Origin: Deinococcales bacterium
GTDB taxonomy: Bacteria; Deinococcota; Deinococci; Deinococcales; JAAFIG01
DNA: 35,160 nt
Assembly: GCA_031414595.1 (NCBI GenBank)
Contig: JANNVX010000056.1
Span: 1-35,160, forward strand
Direction: 5' to 3'
The position numbers are program-made. Positions 1-6,000 of the stretch are shown here, one piece after another. Positions within the stretch are counted from its first letter, which is position 1; each line of letters opens with the position of its first letter.

Positions 1-3000
1 GGACGTGTTGCGGAATACGAAGTGGTATTGCTCTGATTGGTTTATGGAGATTGCTTGTGGTTTGCATAACCTTCGCTGTGCTTTTCGCAAACGGGCTTTG
101 CGGAAATCGAGCTAGTTTCTTATTTCCGATAACGTCTATTAAAAGGAATCGGAGGGATTTGAACCCTCGAGACATCAGTCTTTCTTCTTTAGCAAAGAAG
201 TGCAATAAACCACTCTGCCACGATTCCATTGGCGAGTCTGACAGGATTTGAACCTGCAACAATACGTGTTGGAGACGTACTTTTTGCCCCTTAAAGCAGC
301 ACCTGACGGGCTTGGGGCGCTCCCTTAGCTAGTCGGGATTCAGACTCTTAAAATTCAAGATTTACAACACTATCAGCAGCAAAATCAGAATTCTTGACTT
401 TCTTAATCAATTCAGAAAGGCGCATCGAAACCGCCATTGAAAACACCTGATGTTCTTCGCCACTTTGTTCTCGAGCCACCGAGATTGGAACACCAGAAAC
501 AACCACCTGCACACCTTTTTTGGTGATGTAAGTGTAATCAATTCTAGTTTCGGGAGCAATCACATTCATGTTGACCTCGAGTATACGACTAAAGCACTTA
601 AATTGTATGAACTGTAATCACAATGTAGGAATCAAAAAACGAAACCTTGACGCGAATCCAACGCTTATCGGGAATCTGATACTCGAAATTAATTCCTGCC
701 ATACGAGATAAATTATTATTTGGCAAATCTTTAGAAACTGCTTTACCAAACAAAATAGCTTCAAACAAGGCAACTGGTGCAATATCTTCATCTTGGGCTG
801 CTACAAATGCGTGAGGATGAATTTTGATTTCCTCGCGCCATAGTGCAGTATGAATAAAATCCAATTCCCACTCGAGAATATCCGAAGTTGAAAAATCGAA
901 ACCAGTGGGTAAATCAGGCACAAGAAAGTATACATTGAAAATTTTTGGAGGAATCGGAGGGATTTGAACCCTCGAGACATCAGTCTTTCTTCTTTAGCAA
1001 AGAAGTGCAATAAACCACTCTGCCACGATTCCATTGGCGAGTCTGACAGGATTTGAACCTGCAACAATACGTGTTGGAGACGTAGACCCTTAGCCAGTCG
1101 GGATTCAGACTCAAAAGAGGAAAGCAAGGGAATCGAACCCTTGAAGCATAAGCCCAGCCGTTTTCAAAACGGTGTCCTCGACCCACCGGACGCTTTCCAT
1201 TGGAGACCTCGCTCGGAATTGAACCGAGACTCTTTGGTTTGCAGCCAAAGCCCATGCCGTCTGGCTCGAGATCAAGATTTTGGTGGAGGAGGCGGGACTC
1301 GAACCCGCATATTCGGCACTGTCGGTTTTAGGAAACCCGCTTCCTGCGGCAAGTTACAAACCCACTCGAGATTCGTCGTCTCGAGTCGCCAGCCAGTGCA
1401 TCCGGAACCTCCGACGGTTTTTGACCTGTGCCGCAGCTATTACGCTTACCGAATCCAAGTTTTGCGGTGCGCTCCCGTTTGCGCTACTCCCCCATGTGAG
1501 ATTTTGGTGTTCCTTCAGGGACTCGAACCCAGACTTTTCAGTGTCTTAAGCACTGCGCCTCTACCAATTGGGCTAAAGAAACATGGTGCGTTCGGTAGGA
1601 GTCGAACCTACAGATTCTCGGGTTTGAACCGAACGAGTTTGCCATTCCTCTACAAACGCAAATCTCGAGGATTACCCAAGAATTTTTGGTACGCCGAGCG
1701 GGACTCGAACCCGCAAGCTCCTCGTTCTAAGCGAGGTGAGTTTGCCATTTCTCTATCAGCGCTTAATTCCCTCGAGACTCGAGGATTATGGTGTCCATGA
1801 CGGGATTTGAACCCGTAAATTCTTGTCGCTCAAACAAGTGACTTTGCCAATTTGTCTACACGGATACAGTGGAAATTTGGTGCATGAACCCATATGATTC
1901 ATTGGTGCAGATTGGGAGAATCGAACTCCCGTTATTTGCATGGCAAGCAAGCGTCTTCAACCACTAGACGAAATCTGCAAAAAGCCTCTGCTTGTGTGGC
2001 AATTCTTTAAGCGGTGAATTGCCCTTTGCTCCCGCTCGAGCAAAGAAAAACAGAGGTGAAGACCCAAAAGGGTCTGTGGAGCAGAAGGACAGGTTTCGCA
2101 CCTGCGTCTCGCCTCGGAAAAGGCGCATCTTGCATTTAGAAGACTTCTGCATGGAGCAGTCAGTGGGAATCGCACCCACATTCTCTGGTTGGAAGCCAGA
2201 CATCTTAAGCTATTGGACGATGACTGCATGGAGGTTTTGACAGGAATCGAACCTGCGTTCTTTTGCTTACAAGGCAAGCGCTCGAGCCAACATGAGCTTC
2301 AAAACCATATGGCGTTGCTATTTTAGAACTATTTTAGTATCATTTATCCATGAATCAGATTCTTAATATCCAATTAATTTCAGGTGATCAAATTTTATTA
2401 AGACTCGAGTATCCAACGACTATTTCTCGAGAGCTATTACTTGAGCGTATCCCGCTTCTTTTCGGAGAAGTTAAAGGAGTAAATACTATGAAAGTACCAA
2501 CTGGTGTCTCAAAATCATATATGCAACTTGCTCGTTTTCTTTTACAACAAGAAAATAATGAAATAAAAATTACTTTTTCGCAGCTTGAAAAGGAGTGGAA
2601 TCAACCGTTGCCACGTTCTGCTCGAGTGCATAGAGCTTGGTGGGGAAACACGGAAAATCCGACACATGTCCATGCGAGTTCTTGGATGCTAACTGGTTGG
2701 AAAGTAGAAACAATTGATCTCGAGAATGAGGTTGTCGAATTTATTAGGAACTAAAAAAGTTTTGAAAATGGTGGGTTTCCTCGGGTTTGAACCGAGACCG
2801 CGCAGCTTAAAAGGCTGCTGCTCTACCAGTTGAGCTAAAAACCCATGTGGGACAAAATCAGTCCCATGTTTGGTGATCTCGAGGAGAATTGAACTCCTTC
2901 CTGTCGGGTGAAAACCGCGTATCCTGACCATTAGACGACGAGACCATTTGGAAGGGAAACTGAGAGTCGAACTCAGATTTGACAGCTTCAAAGACTGTTG

Positions 3001-6000
3001 CGTTACCAATTACGCTATTTCCCTGTATTTCGGAATCTCGAGCAAGTGATGTATCACATACAGGATTTGAACCTGCTCTCCGTGAGGATAACCAATAACT
3101 GTGATACTTCGGCTCGAGAAAATTAAATGCTGACTGGTGCATAAATGCGAACTTCTGTTTCGAGGCGTGAGGCTAATTTTCGGCGTTCGATTTCAAGGTC
3201 AAAATTGGTTTGTAAGTTCAACCAGAAACGTTCTGAATTGCCAAAGAATCGTGCAAGTCGCAAGGCGGTTTCGGTACTAATGCCGCGTTTGCCAAGCACA
3301 ATTTCGTTAATACGACGGGCTGGCACACTGATATTTTGTGCAAGTCGGTATTGGCTAAGTCCAAGTGGCTCGAGAAATTCGTACTGTAGTATTTCGCCCG
3401 GGTGAACTGGTTCAAGTTTCATGCTTACCTATTGTACTTGGTCGAGAGACTTGGAATTGAACCAAGACTTACTGTGCTTCAGACAATCGTGCAGACCCAC
3501 TACACCATCTCTCGTTTGGGTGCGGTGGTGGGAGTTGAACCCACCAGCCGAGCTTATGAGACTCGGCGCATCACCGGACGCACACCGCATTAAAGGTTGA
3601 CGCGCACACCGCATCATTGGTCGAAGATGATGGAATCGAACCATCGTTGCCTGCATATCAGACAGGTGTCCTACCATTGGACGAATCTTCGTTTCTCCTC
3701 GAGTTATTAGGAGGTAATACTCGAGGGGTGCGCTATTTTTTAGCGCTCTGGTCGGTGCGGTAGGGGTCGAACCTACGACTTCTGCTTTGTAAGAGCAGCA
3801 CTCATACCACTGAGTTACGCGCCGTTAATCTCGAGAACAGCAAAATTCTCGAGATATGGTGGAAAAGATCGGATTTGAACCGATAACCTTCGCTGTGCAA
3901 AAGCGCTGCTCTCCCGTTGAGCTACTATCCCATGTGTGAACTGGTTACTATCCCATGTGGGGGTTTAACCCCTTTGGTCGAGCGTGCAAGAATTGAACTT
4001 GCCTAATGTCCTGTGTCCAAAACAGGAGACCCTCCTTGAGTCTGACGCTCGAGAATTTAAGATTCGGATAGGAATTGAACCTATGACCTTTGGCTTCGCA
4101 TACCAATGCTCGTTTCCACTGAGCTACCGAATCATGATTATTGGTGAACCGAGCAGGACTTGAACCTGCGGCTTCCATGTTAGAAGCATGGCACTCTGTT
4201 CCACTGAGTTATCGGTTCTTAAAGTTGGAGAATCGGGCAGGACTCGAACCCGCAACATCCACGTTCGACGCGTGGCGCTCTATCCTTTGAACTACCGATT
4301 CAGGTACTCGTGTGAACTACCGATTCAAGTTTGGTAGCCGCGAACAAGTGGATTCTCGAGGGGCGTAATCATTGGAAGTGATAACCCTCGAGATTCGGCT
4401 CGCAGTTTTGGCGGTTCTAACGGGAATCGAACCCGTATTGCCTGAGAGACAGTCAAGCATCGTAGCCGTTGGAACATAGAACCATTTTCATGGTGTCAAA
4501 CACAGACCCTATGGCTGACTCGGTAGGGATCGAACCTACGACAACCTGATTAACAGTCAGGCACTCTACCTCTGAGTCACGAGTCAATAAATGGATACGG
4601 AAGGATTTGAACCTCCATTGTCTTTTAGACGCTTGGGCTACAACCAAGTGCAATACCGTTCTGCCACATACCCATGTGGATGACTGGTATGTCATCCGTA
4701 AAGCTCGAGGTGTACGCCCCAAGCGTGTATCGTCTTTAAGAATAATCGTGATTACACCGTACAGTGCAACAGCATTCACGTTTTCTAAGGGAGAAAAATT
4801 TGGCATTCGAGTTGTCAAGGAATTCACTCAGAGACGAGTTCTAGTCGTCGCAAGCAGTTTGGGTGTTGGTGCTTCTCGAGGACACGAATTCTCGAGTTGG
4901 CGTACACCTGTGGGTTCATCGTCGGGAATCGCACCCGAGTTTCTAGGGTCACAACCTAGCGTCTTGTCTATTGGACGACAACGAACACAGTTTTTGGTTT
5001 GTTGCGGGGTACAAAAAATTTGAGCCTATCCATTGCGGGTAGGCTCAAAAGAGTTTGCCTGTTCCGCCTTACCTGATTTGATTTTCCAAAATACTCGAGA
5101 ATCTACGACCTTGCCATGTCCCTAAACCTAAATCTGAATTATGTTTCAGATTGGCACAATCGCTTGCCCGCATCGGGCGTGGTGCGTATTGTTTTGTGGG
5201 GTGAGTAAAGTTCATATATTTCTCCGTTTGAGGTTTCTAGTCTCGAGGGTGAGGTGTTGTTTCCTCGAGCAGCATAGTACCTACTGCATTCAAGTCTTGT
5301 CATGCGTAGATGTGCTTAGTGTGGTACTAAGCCATTTGACGCGTGAGGGCTGCTCCCAAAAACCAATCCACCTGTCTATTTTGACATCTCCCATGCCTAT
5401 CTTGACCTCACAGCAGCACCTGTCTTGACCACATACGCGCACCTATCGGGCGTGGTCGCTTCGGGCTTGGGTCGCTAAAAGCAGAGAATTTCGGTCTTTC
5501 TCACCGAAACAAAAAGACGAAGCCTAAGCCTCGTCTTTTACTATCTATTTTAAATTTTAGCGCAAGCCAGCCGTGGTCACTTTGACACTTGGTCCCATCG
5601 TGGTGGTCAAGTACAAACTCTTGACAAACACGCCTTTGGCTGCGCCAGGCTTGGCTGCCTCGAGTGCCACTTGAAAAGCCTTGAGGTTTTCCTCGAGCTT
5701 TGCCGCGTCAAACGATGCCTTACCAATTGGAGCGTGAACCACACCAGTCTTGTCGTTGCGGAATTCGATTTGACCGGCTTTGAGGCTTTTGACCAAATCG
5801 CCAATGTTCAAGCCAACTGTGCCGCTTTTTGGGTTTGGCAACAAACCACGAGGTCCAAGAATACGACCCAGTTTAGAACCAATGGCTGCCATCATGTCTG
5901 GGGTAGCAACCACCGCATCAAAGTCCAACCAACCATCAGCAATTTTAGCGATTAACTCGTCGCCGCCCACAAAATCTGCGCCAGCGCCTTCGGCGGCTGG

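Follow-up and report, generated by a model that had tools for sequence, protein, structure and literature searches.

The long tRNA array (L-array, or trn operon) of Anabaena/Nostoc sp. PCC 7120 was reportedly the subject of a study by Puerto-Galan and Vioque in 2012. According to excerpts of Santamaria-Gomez et al. 2021 (PMC8421152), translation inhibitors induce the operon, and 23 of the 26 tRNAs of this array are found charged in vivo; a repressor, TrcR, is common to the array and the RNA ligase gene rtcB (PMC10272220). Other arrays, from Mycobacterium plasmids and phages, Acidithiobacillus and further hosts, are located on plasmids, integrative elements and phages (Tran et al. 2016, PMC4758250; Yano et al. 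2026, PMC12803027; Behra et al. 2019, PMC6582537; Morgado and Vicente 2018, in excerpt), and one such cluster encodes a tRNA-Leu(UAG) whose variable loop is short (PMC6582537). In Streptomyces coelicolor, a type I (short) tRNA-Leu is charged by the single LeuRS, whose leucine-specific domain is required for this; the LeuRS of E. coli fails to charge the same tRNA (Fan et al. 2019, PMC6614811, in excerpt).

The array described here was found in a window of 35,160 nucleotides, the whole stretch of DNA analysed, from a Deinococcales bacterium (assembly GCA_031414595.1, contig JANNVX010000056.1). As the survey's finding had stated, 28 co-oriented tRNA genes serving all 20 amino acids occupy positions 144..4985 of the minus strand: 27 were called by ARAGORN (144-4674, every one on the minus strand), and tRNA-His was added from the 26 Rfam tRNA matches in the array. 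The array falls within the published definition of a tRNA array (at least 20 tRNA genes, at least 2 per kb). Its order, 5' to 3', is His Tyr Asn Asp Arg Arg Arg Pro Ala Val Ile Met Phe Gln Glu Lys Thr Gly Gly Leu Leu Leu Leu Cys Ser Trp Ser ... Ser, and because it reaches the contig end at position 1, its 3' boundary is not seen in the window. The first gene, tRNA-His(GUG) (4914..4985, minus strand, Rfam 47 bits), encodes CCA as well as G-1 and C73, the latter two read off the sequence, and its ortholog in relatives is called by ARAGORN. The tRNA-Ser (82-87 nt) and tRNA-Tyr (84 nt) genes keep their long arms.

Besides the 27 ARAGORN genes of the array, the genome holds 41 dispersed tRNAs. Each array gene is 56-75% identical (mean 66%, global alignment) to the best dispersed gene of the same isotype, and the range of 39-67% given earlier was probably obtained with another measure. 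CCA is encoded in 22 of the 27 genes, and several discriminators depart from host identity rules (U73 in array tRNA-Ser, where dispersed tRNA-Ser have G73; A73 in Gly(GCC); U73 in Gln).

The four array tRNA-Leu genes, all on the minus strand with A73 and an encoded CCA, are tRNA-Leu(GAG) (1789..1865, 77 nt, 80.9 bits with model R1), tRNA-Leu(UAG) (1687..1762, 76 nt, 86.1 bits), tRNA-Leu(CAA) (1584..1659, 76 nt, 81.2 bits) and tRNA-Leu(UAA) (1505..1582, 78 nt). At 76-78 nt and 50-62 Rfam bits they lack the long arm, as claimed before, although the variable loops measure 5 nt in the first three and 6 nt in tRNA-Leu(UAA), rather than 4-5 nt. The four dispersed tRNA-Leu have the lengths previously given (82, 85, 87 and 87 nt). 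A class-II tRNA-Leu(UAA) was not found in this assembly but is present in 13 of the 18 other family genomes, in agreement with the earlier caveat that its occurrence in the array only is probably an assembly gap.

In an alignment of 42 distinct short tRNA-Leu drawn from 15 genomes of the family, pairing is seen in 97.7% of 840 stem cells and 19 of 20 pairs change on both sides, counts that are inflated by the pooling of four paralogous isoacceptors. Pairing and covariation scores as high as those observed were not obtained in any of 500 shuffles, and the paired fraction in slid controls was 34-46%. T8, A14, G18, G19 and the discriminator A are invariant. The survey's conclusion of selection on these genes as tRNAs was therefore borne out, and the sequence comparisons support the view of the array as a divergent second tRNA set under selection as cloverleaves.

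Short variable loops had been presented as the exceptional point of this locus, a view that we do not retain. The oddest trait of the array is widespread elsewhere, being common in long arrays of other phyla and in the tRNA clusters of phages and plasmids, and it has a described precedent in Streptomyces coelicolor (PMC6614811, in excerpt). Short tRNA-Leu were found in the array of Nostoc PCC 7120, in an array on a Mycolicibacterium plasmid, at 120 genome loci and in at least 122 viral contigs. The D-arm of the array tRNA-Leu(UAA), GCCCAAUUGGUAGAGGC, is common to short tRNA-Leu of phages, plasmid arrays and Actinomycetota, many of which carry the same D-arm lineage as solitary chromosomal tRNA-Leu(UAA/CAA/UAG) genes. 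In viral contigs, 134 of 136 hits to the D-arm pattern among the matches listed were short tRNA-Leu, and at least 25 contigs with this signature hold at least 10 tRNAs within 2 kb. The short tRNA-Leu of the array thus appear to belong to a widespread lineage typical of mobile elements.

Their identity as leucine acceptors was assigned from the anticodon alone, which leaves room for the reading that they are charged with another amino acid, or remain uncharged and act as decoys or regulators. One protein scored above the leuS_bact cut-off (954 bits), confirming the single LeuRS of the survey; it lacks the leucine-specific domain by which the Streptomyces enzyme charges its type I tRNA-Leu, and 14 aligned sequences revealed no family-specific indel. 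This absence, together with the failure of E. coli LeuRS on the Streptomyces tRNA, speaks for a non-leucine function (PMC6614811, in excerpt). However, all 42 sequences keep the Leu-type features (A73, G18G19, the U8-A14 pair and a large D-loop on a 3-bp D-stem), the genera retain all four Leu anticodons, and the lineage is also present as solitary chromosomal tRNA-Leu genes in many Actinomycetota. Furthermore, as the Anabaena array contains four homologous short tRNA-Leu and 23 of its 26 tRNAs are charged in vivo, at least one of the four must be charged (PMC8421152, in excerpt). We therefore regard a non-leucine role as very unlikely.

The distribution of the array was examined in a family sample of 19 genomes from five genera (g1-g5). 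Leu-block DNA was detected in 12 of the 18 other genomes (g1 5/7, g3 2/2, g5 5/6), and a whole-array search added g2 (29 tRNAs) and g4 (24 tRNAs), extending the array to all five genera. Gene order is identical in 15 genomes, this one and 14 others, which confirms the five-genus synteny reported before, with genes lost or replaced in some arrays (17-29 genes per array). A DNA search of 22 genomes from other families gave only two matches, each of 28 nt, and plasmid and phage records yielded single-tRNA matches only, with no syntenic copy or related array.

In a tree of 23 concatenated array tRNAs from the 15 genomes, g1, g5 and g3 were recovered with support of 100, 99 and 100, respectively, and the split of g2+g4 from g1+g3+g5 appeared in both this tree and the NusG tree, the two being congruent at the genus level. 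The 31 CTCGAG sites counted at 144-4985 by the survey were correct in number but are not array-specific, as the genome contains 23,235 such sites (5.2 per kb). Across the five genera, they occur at 5.1-8.8 per kb within the arrays and at 4.6-9.0 per kb in the flanking DNA, compared with none in 5.9 kb of the Nostoc region and one in 12 kb of the M. alvei region; likewise, array GC content tracks host GC from 46% to 58%. Since the array tree is congruent with NusG and the arrays share the CTCGAG excess and GC drift of their hosts, vertical descent is the best explanation, as the survey had proposed, and the array is best explained as a set inherited by the whole family from its ancestor.

An alternative hypothesis is that the array, perhaps together with the neighbouring rsr gene described below, is a mobile cassette, acquired independently by the genera or still moving between them, so that its presence would reflect horizontal spread among relatives. 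The position 'just downstream of rplA', previously given for the array, applies only to this genome and a close relative: rplA (ribosomal protein L1; 5557..6375, minus strand; Pfam Ribosomal_L1, E 1.5e-61) is the upstream neighbour here but lies outside the conserved unit, and within the same genus GNAT/trpD or SufE occurs instead (genomes G006 and G003). These differing flanks imply that the unit or its surroundings have moved. The complete genome G013 has nusG at 0.40 Mb and its array at 4.06 Mb.

Small ORFs inserted at varying places point in the same direction. An XRE/HigA-like helix-turn-helix ORF of 99 aa, of toxin-antitoxin type (3123..3422, minus strand; Pfam HTH_3, E 7e-9), lies between tRNA-Phe and tRNA-Gln, with a 95% identical copy in one relative (G001) and none in the other arrays; an ORF of 134 aa with DUF7662 (2350..2754, plus strand, opposite to the tRNAs; PF24698, E 1.5e-11) was found in this window only among the arrays compared. 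A 718-bp insertion (228..945, minus strand) splits the duplicated Trp-Ser(GCU) array end and contains ORFs 598-921 and 370-569, neither with a Pfam match, and a degenerate Trp-like copy (233-303; weak Rfam match, 32.1 bits). The first of these ORFs has an 82% homolog within a g5 array (L043), and another array (L042) has a VTC/DUF4956 insert. Such variation between arrays in inserted ORFs (HTH, DUF7662, VTC/DUF4956) looks like a mobile-element trait, and long arrays elsewhere are held to spread horizontally (PMC8421152, in excerpt), as would be in keeping with the abundance of the short tRNA-Leu lineage in viral contigs. Nevertheless, the congruent trees, the host-tracking GC content and CTCGAG density, a downstream flank kept across three genera at 64-71% protein identity, the absence of integrase, relaxase and homing endonuclease genes from the 48 ORFs of the scanned flanks, and the absence of related arrays from the plasmid and phage collections make a mobile cassette highly improbable.

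Newly described here are a leader ORF and a terminator, both conserved, that precede tRNA-His. The leader ORF (5069..5215, minus strand; coordinates read from the sequence) comprises 48 codons and a stop, with GGAG upstream of its ATG, and ORFs of 48-72 aa occupy the same place in g1, g2, g3 and g5. Its stop lies 20 nt before an intrinsic-terminator-like hairpin, UUGAGCCUA...UAGGCUCAA followed by a U-run (5013..5048, minus strand), 27 nt upstream of tRNA-His; a hairpin with a T-run, differing in stem sequence, was present at all 12 loci with upstream DNA, in all five genera. A promoter-like site, ATGACA-18-TACTAT (5274..5303, minus strand; 9 of 12 consensus matches), precedes the leader in a region conserved within g1, and is a weak call given that the scan returned 6 sites against 5.6 expected.

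Also newly described is a conserved tRNA-like RNA of about 210 nt within the array (1282..1497, minus strand), with an acceptor, D-arm, T-arm, G3.U70, A73, CCA and an insert of about 135 nt. Copies 76-99% identical occupy the same array position in all five genera, and an Rfam search of this RNA returned no family at threshold.

These conserved elements bear on whether the array could be a silent, slowly decaying relic that is not expressed at useful levels and persists because loss is slow. The 5 of 27 genes without CCA, the odd discriminators, the degenerate duplicate at 233-303 and the loss or replacement of genes in some arrays would fit such decay, as would the first reports of long arrays elsewhere as poorly transcribed (PMC8421152, in excerpt). 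Array orthologs differ by up to 37% between genera, which is fast for tRNAs and could alternatively mean relaxed selection. However, the array has been kept in all five genera across a NusG divergence down to 66% identity, compensatory changes keep the stems paired, and leader, terminator and 210-nt RNA are conserved; a relic is thus quite unlikely.

The conserved neighbour of the array is the downstream Ro60 gene, rsr (TROVE and vWA_Ro60 domains), which directly follows it in the same orientation in g1, g2 and g3, an arrangement newly described here. The gene was not found in this assembly and is not adjacent to the array in g4 or g5. In g1, rsr is immediately preceded by a tRNA-like gene that carries a 65-nt insert; the Rfam YrlA model gave no match at threshold (25 and 22 bits against 69).

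The proximity of Ro60, an RNA damage and quality-control protein, is in line with the idea that the chief role of the set is protection from toxins or defence nucleases that cleave tRNA, whether the cell's own, competitors' or phages', by supplying cleavage-escaping variants as phage tRNAs do; the short tRNA-Leu would then be spared by nucleases or other enzymes that recognize the long arm. Throughout the array, the tRNAs differ from their housekeeping counterparts; the short tRNA-Leu lineage is characteristic of phage tRNA clusters; and phage tRNAs evading anticodon nucleases are documented (PMC10264068; PMC11555353, in excerpt). Against this, the excerpted literature on tRNA nucleases contains none that targets the long arm of bacterial tRNA-Leu, and nothing in the window identifies such a toxin. 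We consider this unlikely as the main role; it is a variant of the explanation below and not an exclusive rival.

Taken as a whole, the array is read as a domesticated long tRNA array, and it is likely that an L-array of the kind spread by phages and plasmids was acquired once by the common ancestor of the family and thereafter passed on vertically as a chromosomal operon, forming a complete alternative tRNA set in which leucine would be served by four type I tRNA-Leu. The genes, their cloverleaf covariation, the family synteny, the host-congruent tree and the adaptation to host composition are the demonstrated basis of this explanation. By analogy with Streptomyces coelicolor and the PCC 7120 array, the tRNAs are probably expressed and aminoacylated, with the single LeuRS acting on the short tRNA-Leu. 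Transcription may start from the unit's own promoter and proceed through the leader ORF and intrinsic terminator, where ribosome stalling on the leader could raise read-through. The set might be a tRNA pool kept in reserve, or one resistant to damage, for times of translational stress or of attack on tRNAs, with the 210-nt RNA and, in three genera, the downstream Ro60 gene as possible partners.

Compared with known systems, the array resembles the plasmid delta L-array of PCC 7120 (PMC8421152, in excerpt) in being long, co-oriented and tightly spaced and in duplicating the housekeeping set. Both contain four short tRNA-Leu with the same anticodons (UAA, CAA, UAG, GAG) and keep the long arms of Ser(GCU) and Tyr, and the Anabaena Leu(CAA) reaches 82.5 bits with the family model, a score on a par with those of family members. 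However, their gene orders are unrelated; the PCC 7120 array is plasmid-borne beside HNH endonuclease genes and has a TrcR operator (PMC10272220), whereas the present one is chromosomal, with no HNH gene seen, and has a leader ORF and terminator. The PCC 7120 array is patchily distributed, which excerpts of the report on it attribute to horizontal transfer (PMC8421152), in contrast to the family-wide occurrence and host-adapted composition observed here. The M. alvei plasmid array encodes a short Leu(CAG) of 75 nt and a Leu(UAA) of 78 nt with the same D-arm, but Mycobacterium/Acidithiobacillus-type arrays carry GIY-YIG or HNH nucleases and vary between strains, while the present array is conserved across five genera.

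By its excerpted description, the type I tRNA-Leu(CAA) of Streptomyces coelicolor (PMC6614811) likewise has a 5-nt variable loop and coexists with type II tRNA-Leu in a cell that has a single LeuRS; it comes from one chromosomal gene and is charged via the leucine-specific domain, whereas here four isoacceptors lie in an array and the LeuRS lacks this domain. A Ro60 ortholog beside tRNA-like RNAs, as in g1, is also found in the Salmonella rsr-Y RNA (yrlA/yrlB)-rtcBA operon (Chen et al. 2014, PMC4201824, in excerpt) and in Deinococcus radiodurans rsr-Y RNA (Hughes et al. 2020, PMC7790460, in excerpt). The Salmonella operon includes rtcBA, and the flanks scanned here hold neither rtcB nor rtcA; the excerpted rsr/Y RNA literature describes no case of an entire tRNA array preceding rsr. 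Finally, phage tRNA clusters share the short tRNA-Leu D-arm signature in at least 122 viral contigs, and in a Vibrio phage a 78-nt tRNA-Leu is located 2 kb away from a TROVE (Ro60-like) gene; in contrast to these clusters, the present array has no phage genes in its scanned flanks, resides on a cellular chromosome and bears the sequence signature of its host.

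As the survey had reported, the array in the window comprises 28 co-oriented tRNA genes that include four short tRNA-Leu, an observation confirmed here with both ARAGORN and Rfam. ARAGORN placed 27 tRNA genes at 144-4674, all on the minus strand, and Rfam added the tRNA-His gene at 4914-4985 as well as a weak Trp-like copy at 233-303. In total, 28 genes for all 20 amino acids, all on the minus strand, occupy 4,842 bp at 5.8 genes per kb. As the published definition of a tRNA array unit asks for 20 or more tRNA genes and for two or more of them per kb (Tran et al. 2016, PMC4758250), the array is, by size, density and co-orientation, a tRNA array unit or long tRNA gene array (L-array). 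The window is one entire contig of an assembly of 4.49 Mb (120 contigs, 47.2% GC), and the array reaches to within 143 bases of its end, so that the 3' boundary of the array is not visible in the window.

Besides the 27 array genes found by ARAGORN, the genome carries 41 dispersed tRNA genes. The array genes share 56-75% identity (mean 66%) with the best dispersed gene of the same isotype, and CCA is encoded in 22 of the 27 array genes, as it is in most genes of both sets. The array is supernumerary, duplicating the housekeeping isoacceptors, and only Leu(UAA), Arg(UCG) and Arg(GCG) have no dispersed counterpart in this assembly. The missing dispersed tRNA-Leu(UAA) had been ascribed to a probable assembly gap, and a pattern search bore this out, finding a class-II copy (long variable arm) in 13 of the other 18 genomes of the family. 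A group I intron was considered as the cause and rejected, since the genome gave no Intron_gpI match and the pattern search pointed to the gap.

The ORFs inserted in the arrays vary from genome to genome. Those in the window array encode an XRE/HigA-like HTH protein and, on the opposite strand, a DUF7662 protein; two further small ORFs lie inside a 718-bp insertion that interrupts the duplicated Trp-Ser end. In one array of genus g5 (locus L042), a VTC-domain gene and a DUF4956 gene are inserted between tRNA-Asn and tRNA-Arg (5466-7068), and a HigB/HigA pair lies immediately downstream of the array. No homing endonuclease of the HNH or GIY-YIG type was found among the 48 Pfam-scanned ORFs of the window and seven related loci, a scan that took in part of the in-array ORFs of the other loci. 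The spacer between tRNA-His and tRNA-Tyr (4675-4913 on the minus strand of the window, 239 nt) recurs with a length of 172-240 nt in genera g1, g2 and g3.

The family was represented by 19 species genomes from five genera, the window genome belonging to g1. A DNA search with the Leu block was positive in 12 of the 18 other genomes (5/7 in g1, 2/2 in g3 and 5/6 in g5), and a query with the whole array added collinear arrays in g2 (G008, 29 tRNAs) and g4 (G010, 24 tRNAs) together with an array end in G004; all five genera therefore hold the array. In G002 and G012 the whole-array query returned nothing beyond weak single-tRNA matches; these two genomes and G018, which lay outside that query, are 79-87% complete. 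The gene order is the same throughout, with losses, swaps and additions being local. A maximum-likelihood tree built for 15 genomes on 23 concatenated array tRNAs recovered g1, g3 and g5 with support of 99-100 and set g2 and g4 together apart from the remaining genera, as the NusG protein tree did; NusG identity to the window falls from 88-99% within g1 to 66% in g2. A search of four other families of the order (22 genomes) with the Leu-block DNA gave two 28-nt matches and nothing else, and a covariance model of the short tRNA-Leu, run on 151 genomes of the order, found three or four strong matches per genome in this family only. A comparison with the known arrays of plasmids and phages revealed no synteny, the matches being limited to single tRNAs.

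The base composition of the array also follows that of its hosts, as its GC content tracks that of the host between 46% (g1) and 58% (g4). Other families of the order have 61-70% GC at the five loci examined, and one has 39%. The survey had drawn attention to 31 CTCGAG sites inside the array. Their number is correct, with 26 of the 31 lying in spacers, but they are not a feature of the array itself, since the genome as a whole contains 23,235 sites, or 5.2 per kb, which is 24 times the expectation from base composition and far above every other 6-bp palindrome (the next reaches 2.2 times). Outside the array, the window carries 4.8 sites per kb, and the excess is common to all five genera, at 4.6-9.0 per kb in the flanks and 5.1-8.8 per kb in the arrays. 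Being genome- and family-wide, this excess is uninformative about the function of the array; however, the fact that array densities resemble those of the hosts in all five genera is good evidence of long residence in these genomes. The array region of Nostoc contains no CTCGAG in 5.9 kb and that of Mycolicibacterium alvei only one in 12 kb. The CTCGAG excess of the family is comparable in kind to HIP1 of cyanobacteria; our literature search for such an excess turned up nothing relevant.

Taken together, the presence in five genera, the congruence with the NusG tree and the host-like composition support the vertical inheritance that the survey had proposed. L-arrays have been characterized as patchy in distribution and horizontally spread (Santamaria-Gomez et al. 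2021, PMC8421152), a description that does not apply to this array, although a horizontal origin may have preceded the ancestor of the family. The family carries a complete alternative set of tRNAs that is structurally maintained and inherited with it.

The location next to rplA, also part of the survey's finding, holds for the window genome and for G005, where rplA, rplK and nusG lie upstream, but not for the other family genomes examined. The upstream neighbours there include a GNAT acetyltransferase gene and trpD (G006), and SufE (G003), formamidase (G013) and SpoU methylase (G009) genes, while the g5 arrays are preceded by a divergent moeA and by a gene for alpha-2-macroglobulin. The genome of G013 is complete, and there the array lies at 4.06 Mb and nusG at 0.40 Mb. 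Elsewhere in the window, a gene at 8602-13245 (+) encodes a protein of 1,547 aa that combines eight GAF domains with a GGDEF domain at its C-terminus, and it adjoins a JAB/MPN-domain ORF at 8156-8563. The conserved neighbour of the arrays is instead a downstream, co-oriented ortholog of Ro60 (rsr; TROVE and vWA_Ro60 domains, E about 1e-64), which follows the array in g1 (G001, G003, G004, G006 and G007), g2 (G008) and g3 (G009 and G013); the arrays of g4 and g5 have no adjacent Ro60 gene. In the window genome, an assembly that is 94% complete, rsr was found neither with the G006 protein nor by tblastn. A TROVE-domain (Ro60-like) gene also occurs in the Vibrio phage phiKT1024 (OM249648, locus L073, 120150-123884), 2 kb upstream of a 78-nt tRNA-Leu(UAA) with a short variable loop (type I), the D-arm of which is that of the tRNA-Leu(UAA) in the window.

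Irrespective of the upstream gene, approximately 300 bp ahead of tRNA-His are conserved. In the window, this region contains, on the minus strand, a tentatively assigned promoter-like site (5303-5274), a 48-codon leader ORF with a Shine-Dalgarno sequence and an ATG start (5215-5069) and a hairpin with a U-run that resembles an intrinsic terminator (5048-5013), with tRNA-His beginning 27 nt past the U-run. ORFs of 48-72 codons occupy the leader position in g1, g3, g5 and g2, and the hairpin with its U-run was found in all 12 loci with upstream DNA, which cover all five genera, with differing stem sequences; the leader stop codon lies 19-24 nt ahead of the hairpin in the three genomes measured (the window genome, G013 and G015). 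A short translated ORF followed by an intrinsic terminator, placed between promoter and structural genes, is the arrangement of an attenuator. As the space between hairpin and tRNA-His seems too short for a separate promoter, we read the leader ORF and terminator as a putative leader-peptide attenuator of the array.

A tRNA-like element of about 210 nt (1282-1497, minus strand) lies between tRNA-Leu(UAA) and tRNA-Cys. Its acceptor stem carries G3.U70, A73 and CCA, and besides D- and T-arms the element contains an insert of about 135 nt. All five genera have it at the corresponding point of the array, in copies that are 76-99% identical to that of the window, which is above the conservation of most neighbouring tRNAs (63-96%). 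No Rfam family matched the element, the YrlA model included, and a 20-mer of its insert was found in no viral contig and gave two chance matches to metagenome contigs, both without tRNAs. The element lies within about 4 kb of the Ro60 gene in g1, g2 and g3, where rsr follows the array, but not in g4 and g5, and it is possible that it is a Ro60 partner. A second tRNA-like gene occurs just upstream of rsr in g1 (6354-6477 in L036, 3201-3324 in L033, 890-1025 in L063 and, in three copies, 5679-6800 in L035); its acceptor, D- and T-arms are intact and a 65-nt insert replaces the anticodon loop. This gene, a candidate Y RNA, scores 50.4 bits on the tRNA model, with weak YrlA matches of 25 and 22 bits; the window genome, g2 and g3 lack it.

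In the four tRNA-Leu of the array, which measure 76-78 nt, the D-stem has 3 bp, the D-loop 10-11 nt and the variable loop 5-6 nt, and the discriminator is A73; long arms are kept in the Ser and Tyr genes of the same array; the dispersed tRNA-Leu measure 82-87 nt. Across 42 distinct short tRNA-Leu from 15 family genomes, cloverleaf pairing was found in 97.7% of 840 cells and two-sided changes in 19 of 20 pairs, part of this covariation being between paralogs because four paralogous isoacceptors are mixed in the set. None of 500 shuffles matched the real alignment in pairing or in covariation score, and pairing in slid controls was 34-46%. In addition, all 42 sequences have T8, A14, G18, G19 and a discriminator A. 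With a Leu anticodon, a variable loop of 5-6 nt, a normal cloverleaf and both U8-A14 and A73, these are type I tRNA-Leu.

In Streptomyces coelicolor, the single LeuRS of the cell leucylates a type I tRNA-Leu(CAA) whose variable loop is 5 nt long, and the U8-A14 tertiary pair is an identity element common to both tRNA-Leu types; the E. coli LeuRS fails to charge this tRNA, and the Streptomyces enzyme requires its leucine-specific domain to do so (Fan et al. 2019, PMC6614811). The window genome likewise encodes a single LeuRS, as had been proposed, with one gene, on contig C28, above the curated cut-off. In 14 LeuRS from this family and two sister families, only about five residues separate NQGxILG from KMSKS, and these enzymes are therefore without the leucine-specific domain; the 14 aligned sequences show no family-specific indel that would mark co-evolution with the array. 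The conserved Leu-type elements make it plausible that the short tRNA-Leu are charged, although this is not assured because the LeuRS lacks that domain, and by analogy with S. coelicolor and with charging in vivo in Anabaena they might be leucylated by the cell's own LeuRS. The Streptomyces mechanism is thus not simply transferable, and if the tRNAs are charged, the mechanism differs. A separate class-II Leu-like tRNA gene with A73, a long arm and an AU-rich acceptor stem lies on another contig of the window genome (C32, 41112-41273; L212), with orthologs at L213-L217. Its anticodon is Phe GAA in the window genome and G005 and CAA in G004 and G001, a 16-nt insert occupies the anticodon loop in G003 and G006, and the anticodons of the tRNA-like genes beside it also differ between species.

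The survey had presented the short tRNA-Leu as the exceptional trait of the array. This view is not sustained, as they were also found in Nostoc, M. alvei and phage tRNA clusters and have been described in Streptomyces (PMC6614811); they represent a lineage typical of mobile tRNA clusters and do not have the novelty first attributed to them. The plasmid delta array of Nostoc/Anabaena PCC 7120 contains four tRNA-Leu that measure 75-78 nt and share their four anticodons with those of the window array, its Leu(CAA) scoring 82.5 bits on the family model, equal to family members, and the plasmid array of M. alvei has short Leu(CAG) and Leu(UAA) beside one long Leu(CAA). Within the order, short tRNA-Leu also occur in small tRNA clusters of other families. 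All of these share the D-arm GCCCAA..GGYAGAGGC or its UCCCAA variant, in place of the GGCGGAAUUGGUAGACGC of housekeeping class-II tRNA-Leu.

A pattern combining this D-arm with class-I spacing to the T-loop was run on contigs of one genome per species and on viral contigs. The former yielded at least 120 loci, and all 123 matches listed were tRNA-Leu of 74-78 nt by ARAGORN. Among the matches listed (L074-L193), most are solitary chromosomal genes of Actinomycetota, and some are members of long arrays, in Elusimicrobia, Polyangiaceae, Asanoa, Myxococcus and Planctomycetota; the solitary genes listed, tRNA-Leu(UAA/CAA/UAG) of 74-78 nt, come from Nocardia, Arthrobacter, Corynebacterium, Rhodococcus, Amycolatopsis, Mycobacterium and others. 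The viral contigs yielded at least 122 loci, with 134 of the 136 matches listed being short tRNA-Leu; at least 49 of the viral loci listed have five or more tRNAs within 2 kb and at least 25 have ten or more. Bacterial tRNA-Leu is, by the textbook rule, always class II, and with at least 120 genome loci and at least 122 viral loci this rule needs qualifying. Type I tRNA-Leu, termed a rare case (PMC6614811), is much more widely spread than the single Streptomyces example. In the array literature searched, the sole match was a sentence on a mycobacterial tRNA-Leu(UAG), encoded in a cluster, whose variable loop is short (Behra et al. 2019, PMC6582537); PMC8421152 and PMC4758250, searched for this point, yielded no passage on short tRNA-Leu, although the supplements of these papers may list tRNA structures.

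Long tRNA arrays have been viewed as horizontally scattered and often cryptic cargo (PMC8421152). The gene order kept over five genera, the host-adapted composition and the conserved leader indicate that a long array can become a stable part of the translation apparatus of a lineage. This family of arrays offers a natural system in which to ask what purpose a second tRNA set serves, and the recognition of type I tRNA-Leu by a LeuRS without the leucine-specific domain is a direct biochemical question. A tentative and, as a whole, rather unlikely scenario is that a phage-derived array was domesticated as a stress module of the family, in which ribosome stalling, sensed through a leader peptide and terminator, would open transcription of a structurally distinct full tRNA set. 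The transcribed unit would include the 210-nt RNA and, ancestrally, Ro60, making tRNA replacement and Ro60-mediated RNA quality control one response to damage of the translation machinery, and type I tRNA-Leu would mark an ancient mobile tRNA lineage that phages and plasmid arrays have in common with the chromosomes of Actinomycetota.

Among known systems, the array is best filed as a domesticated L-array; its fixation across the family, the conserved leader and terminator, the 210-nt tRNA-like RNA and the linkage to Ro60 seem new. Common descent of the whole array with those of Anabaena or M. alvei was considered but could not be shown, as per-isotype identities of 48-78% are about those to the host's own tRNAs, and the part clearly shared with them is the tRNA-Leu D-arm only. 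The Anabaena array forms a single operon that stays silent under standard growth conditions and is switched on by impaired translation, with 23 of its 26 tRNAs aminoacylated in vivo (PMC8421152); as four of the 26 are short tRNA-Leu, at least one of these must be charged there. By analogy, the present array may be transcribed as one operon that is normally silent and induced by impaired translation, its control could act through the leader ORF and terminator, and Ro60 might tie it to RNA quality control. In Anabaena, TrcR represses both the array and rtcB (PMC10272220), and the physical link between tRNA array and Ro60 observed here parallels that co-regulation.
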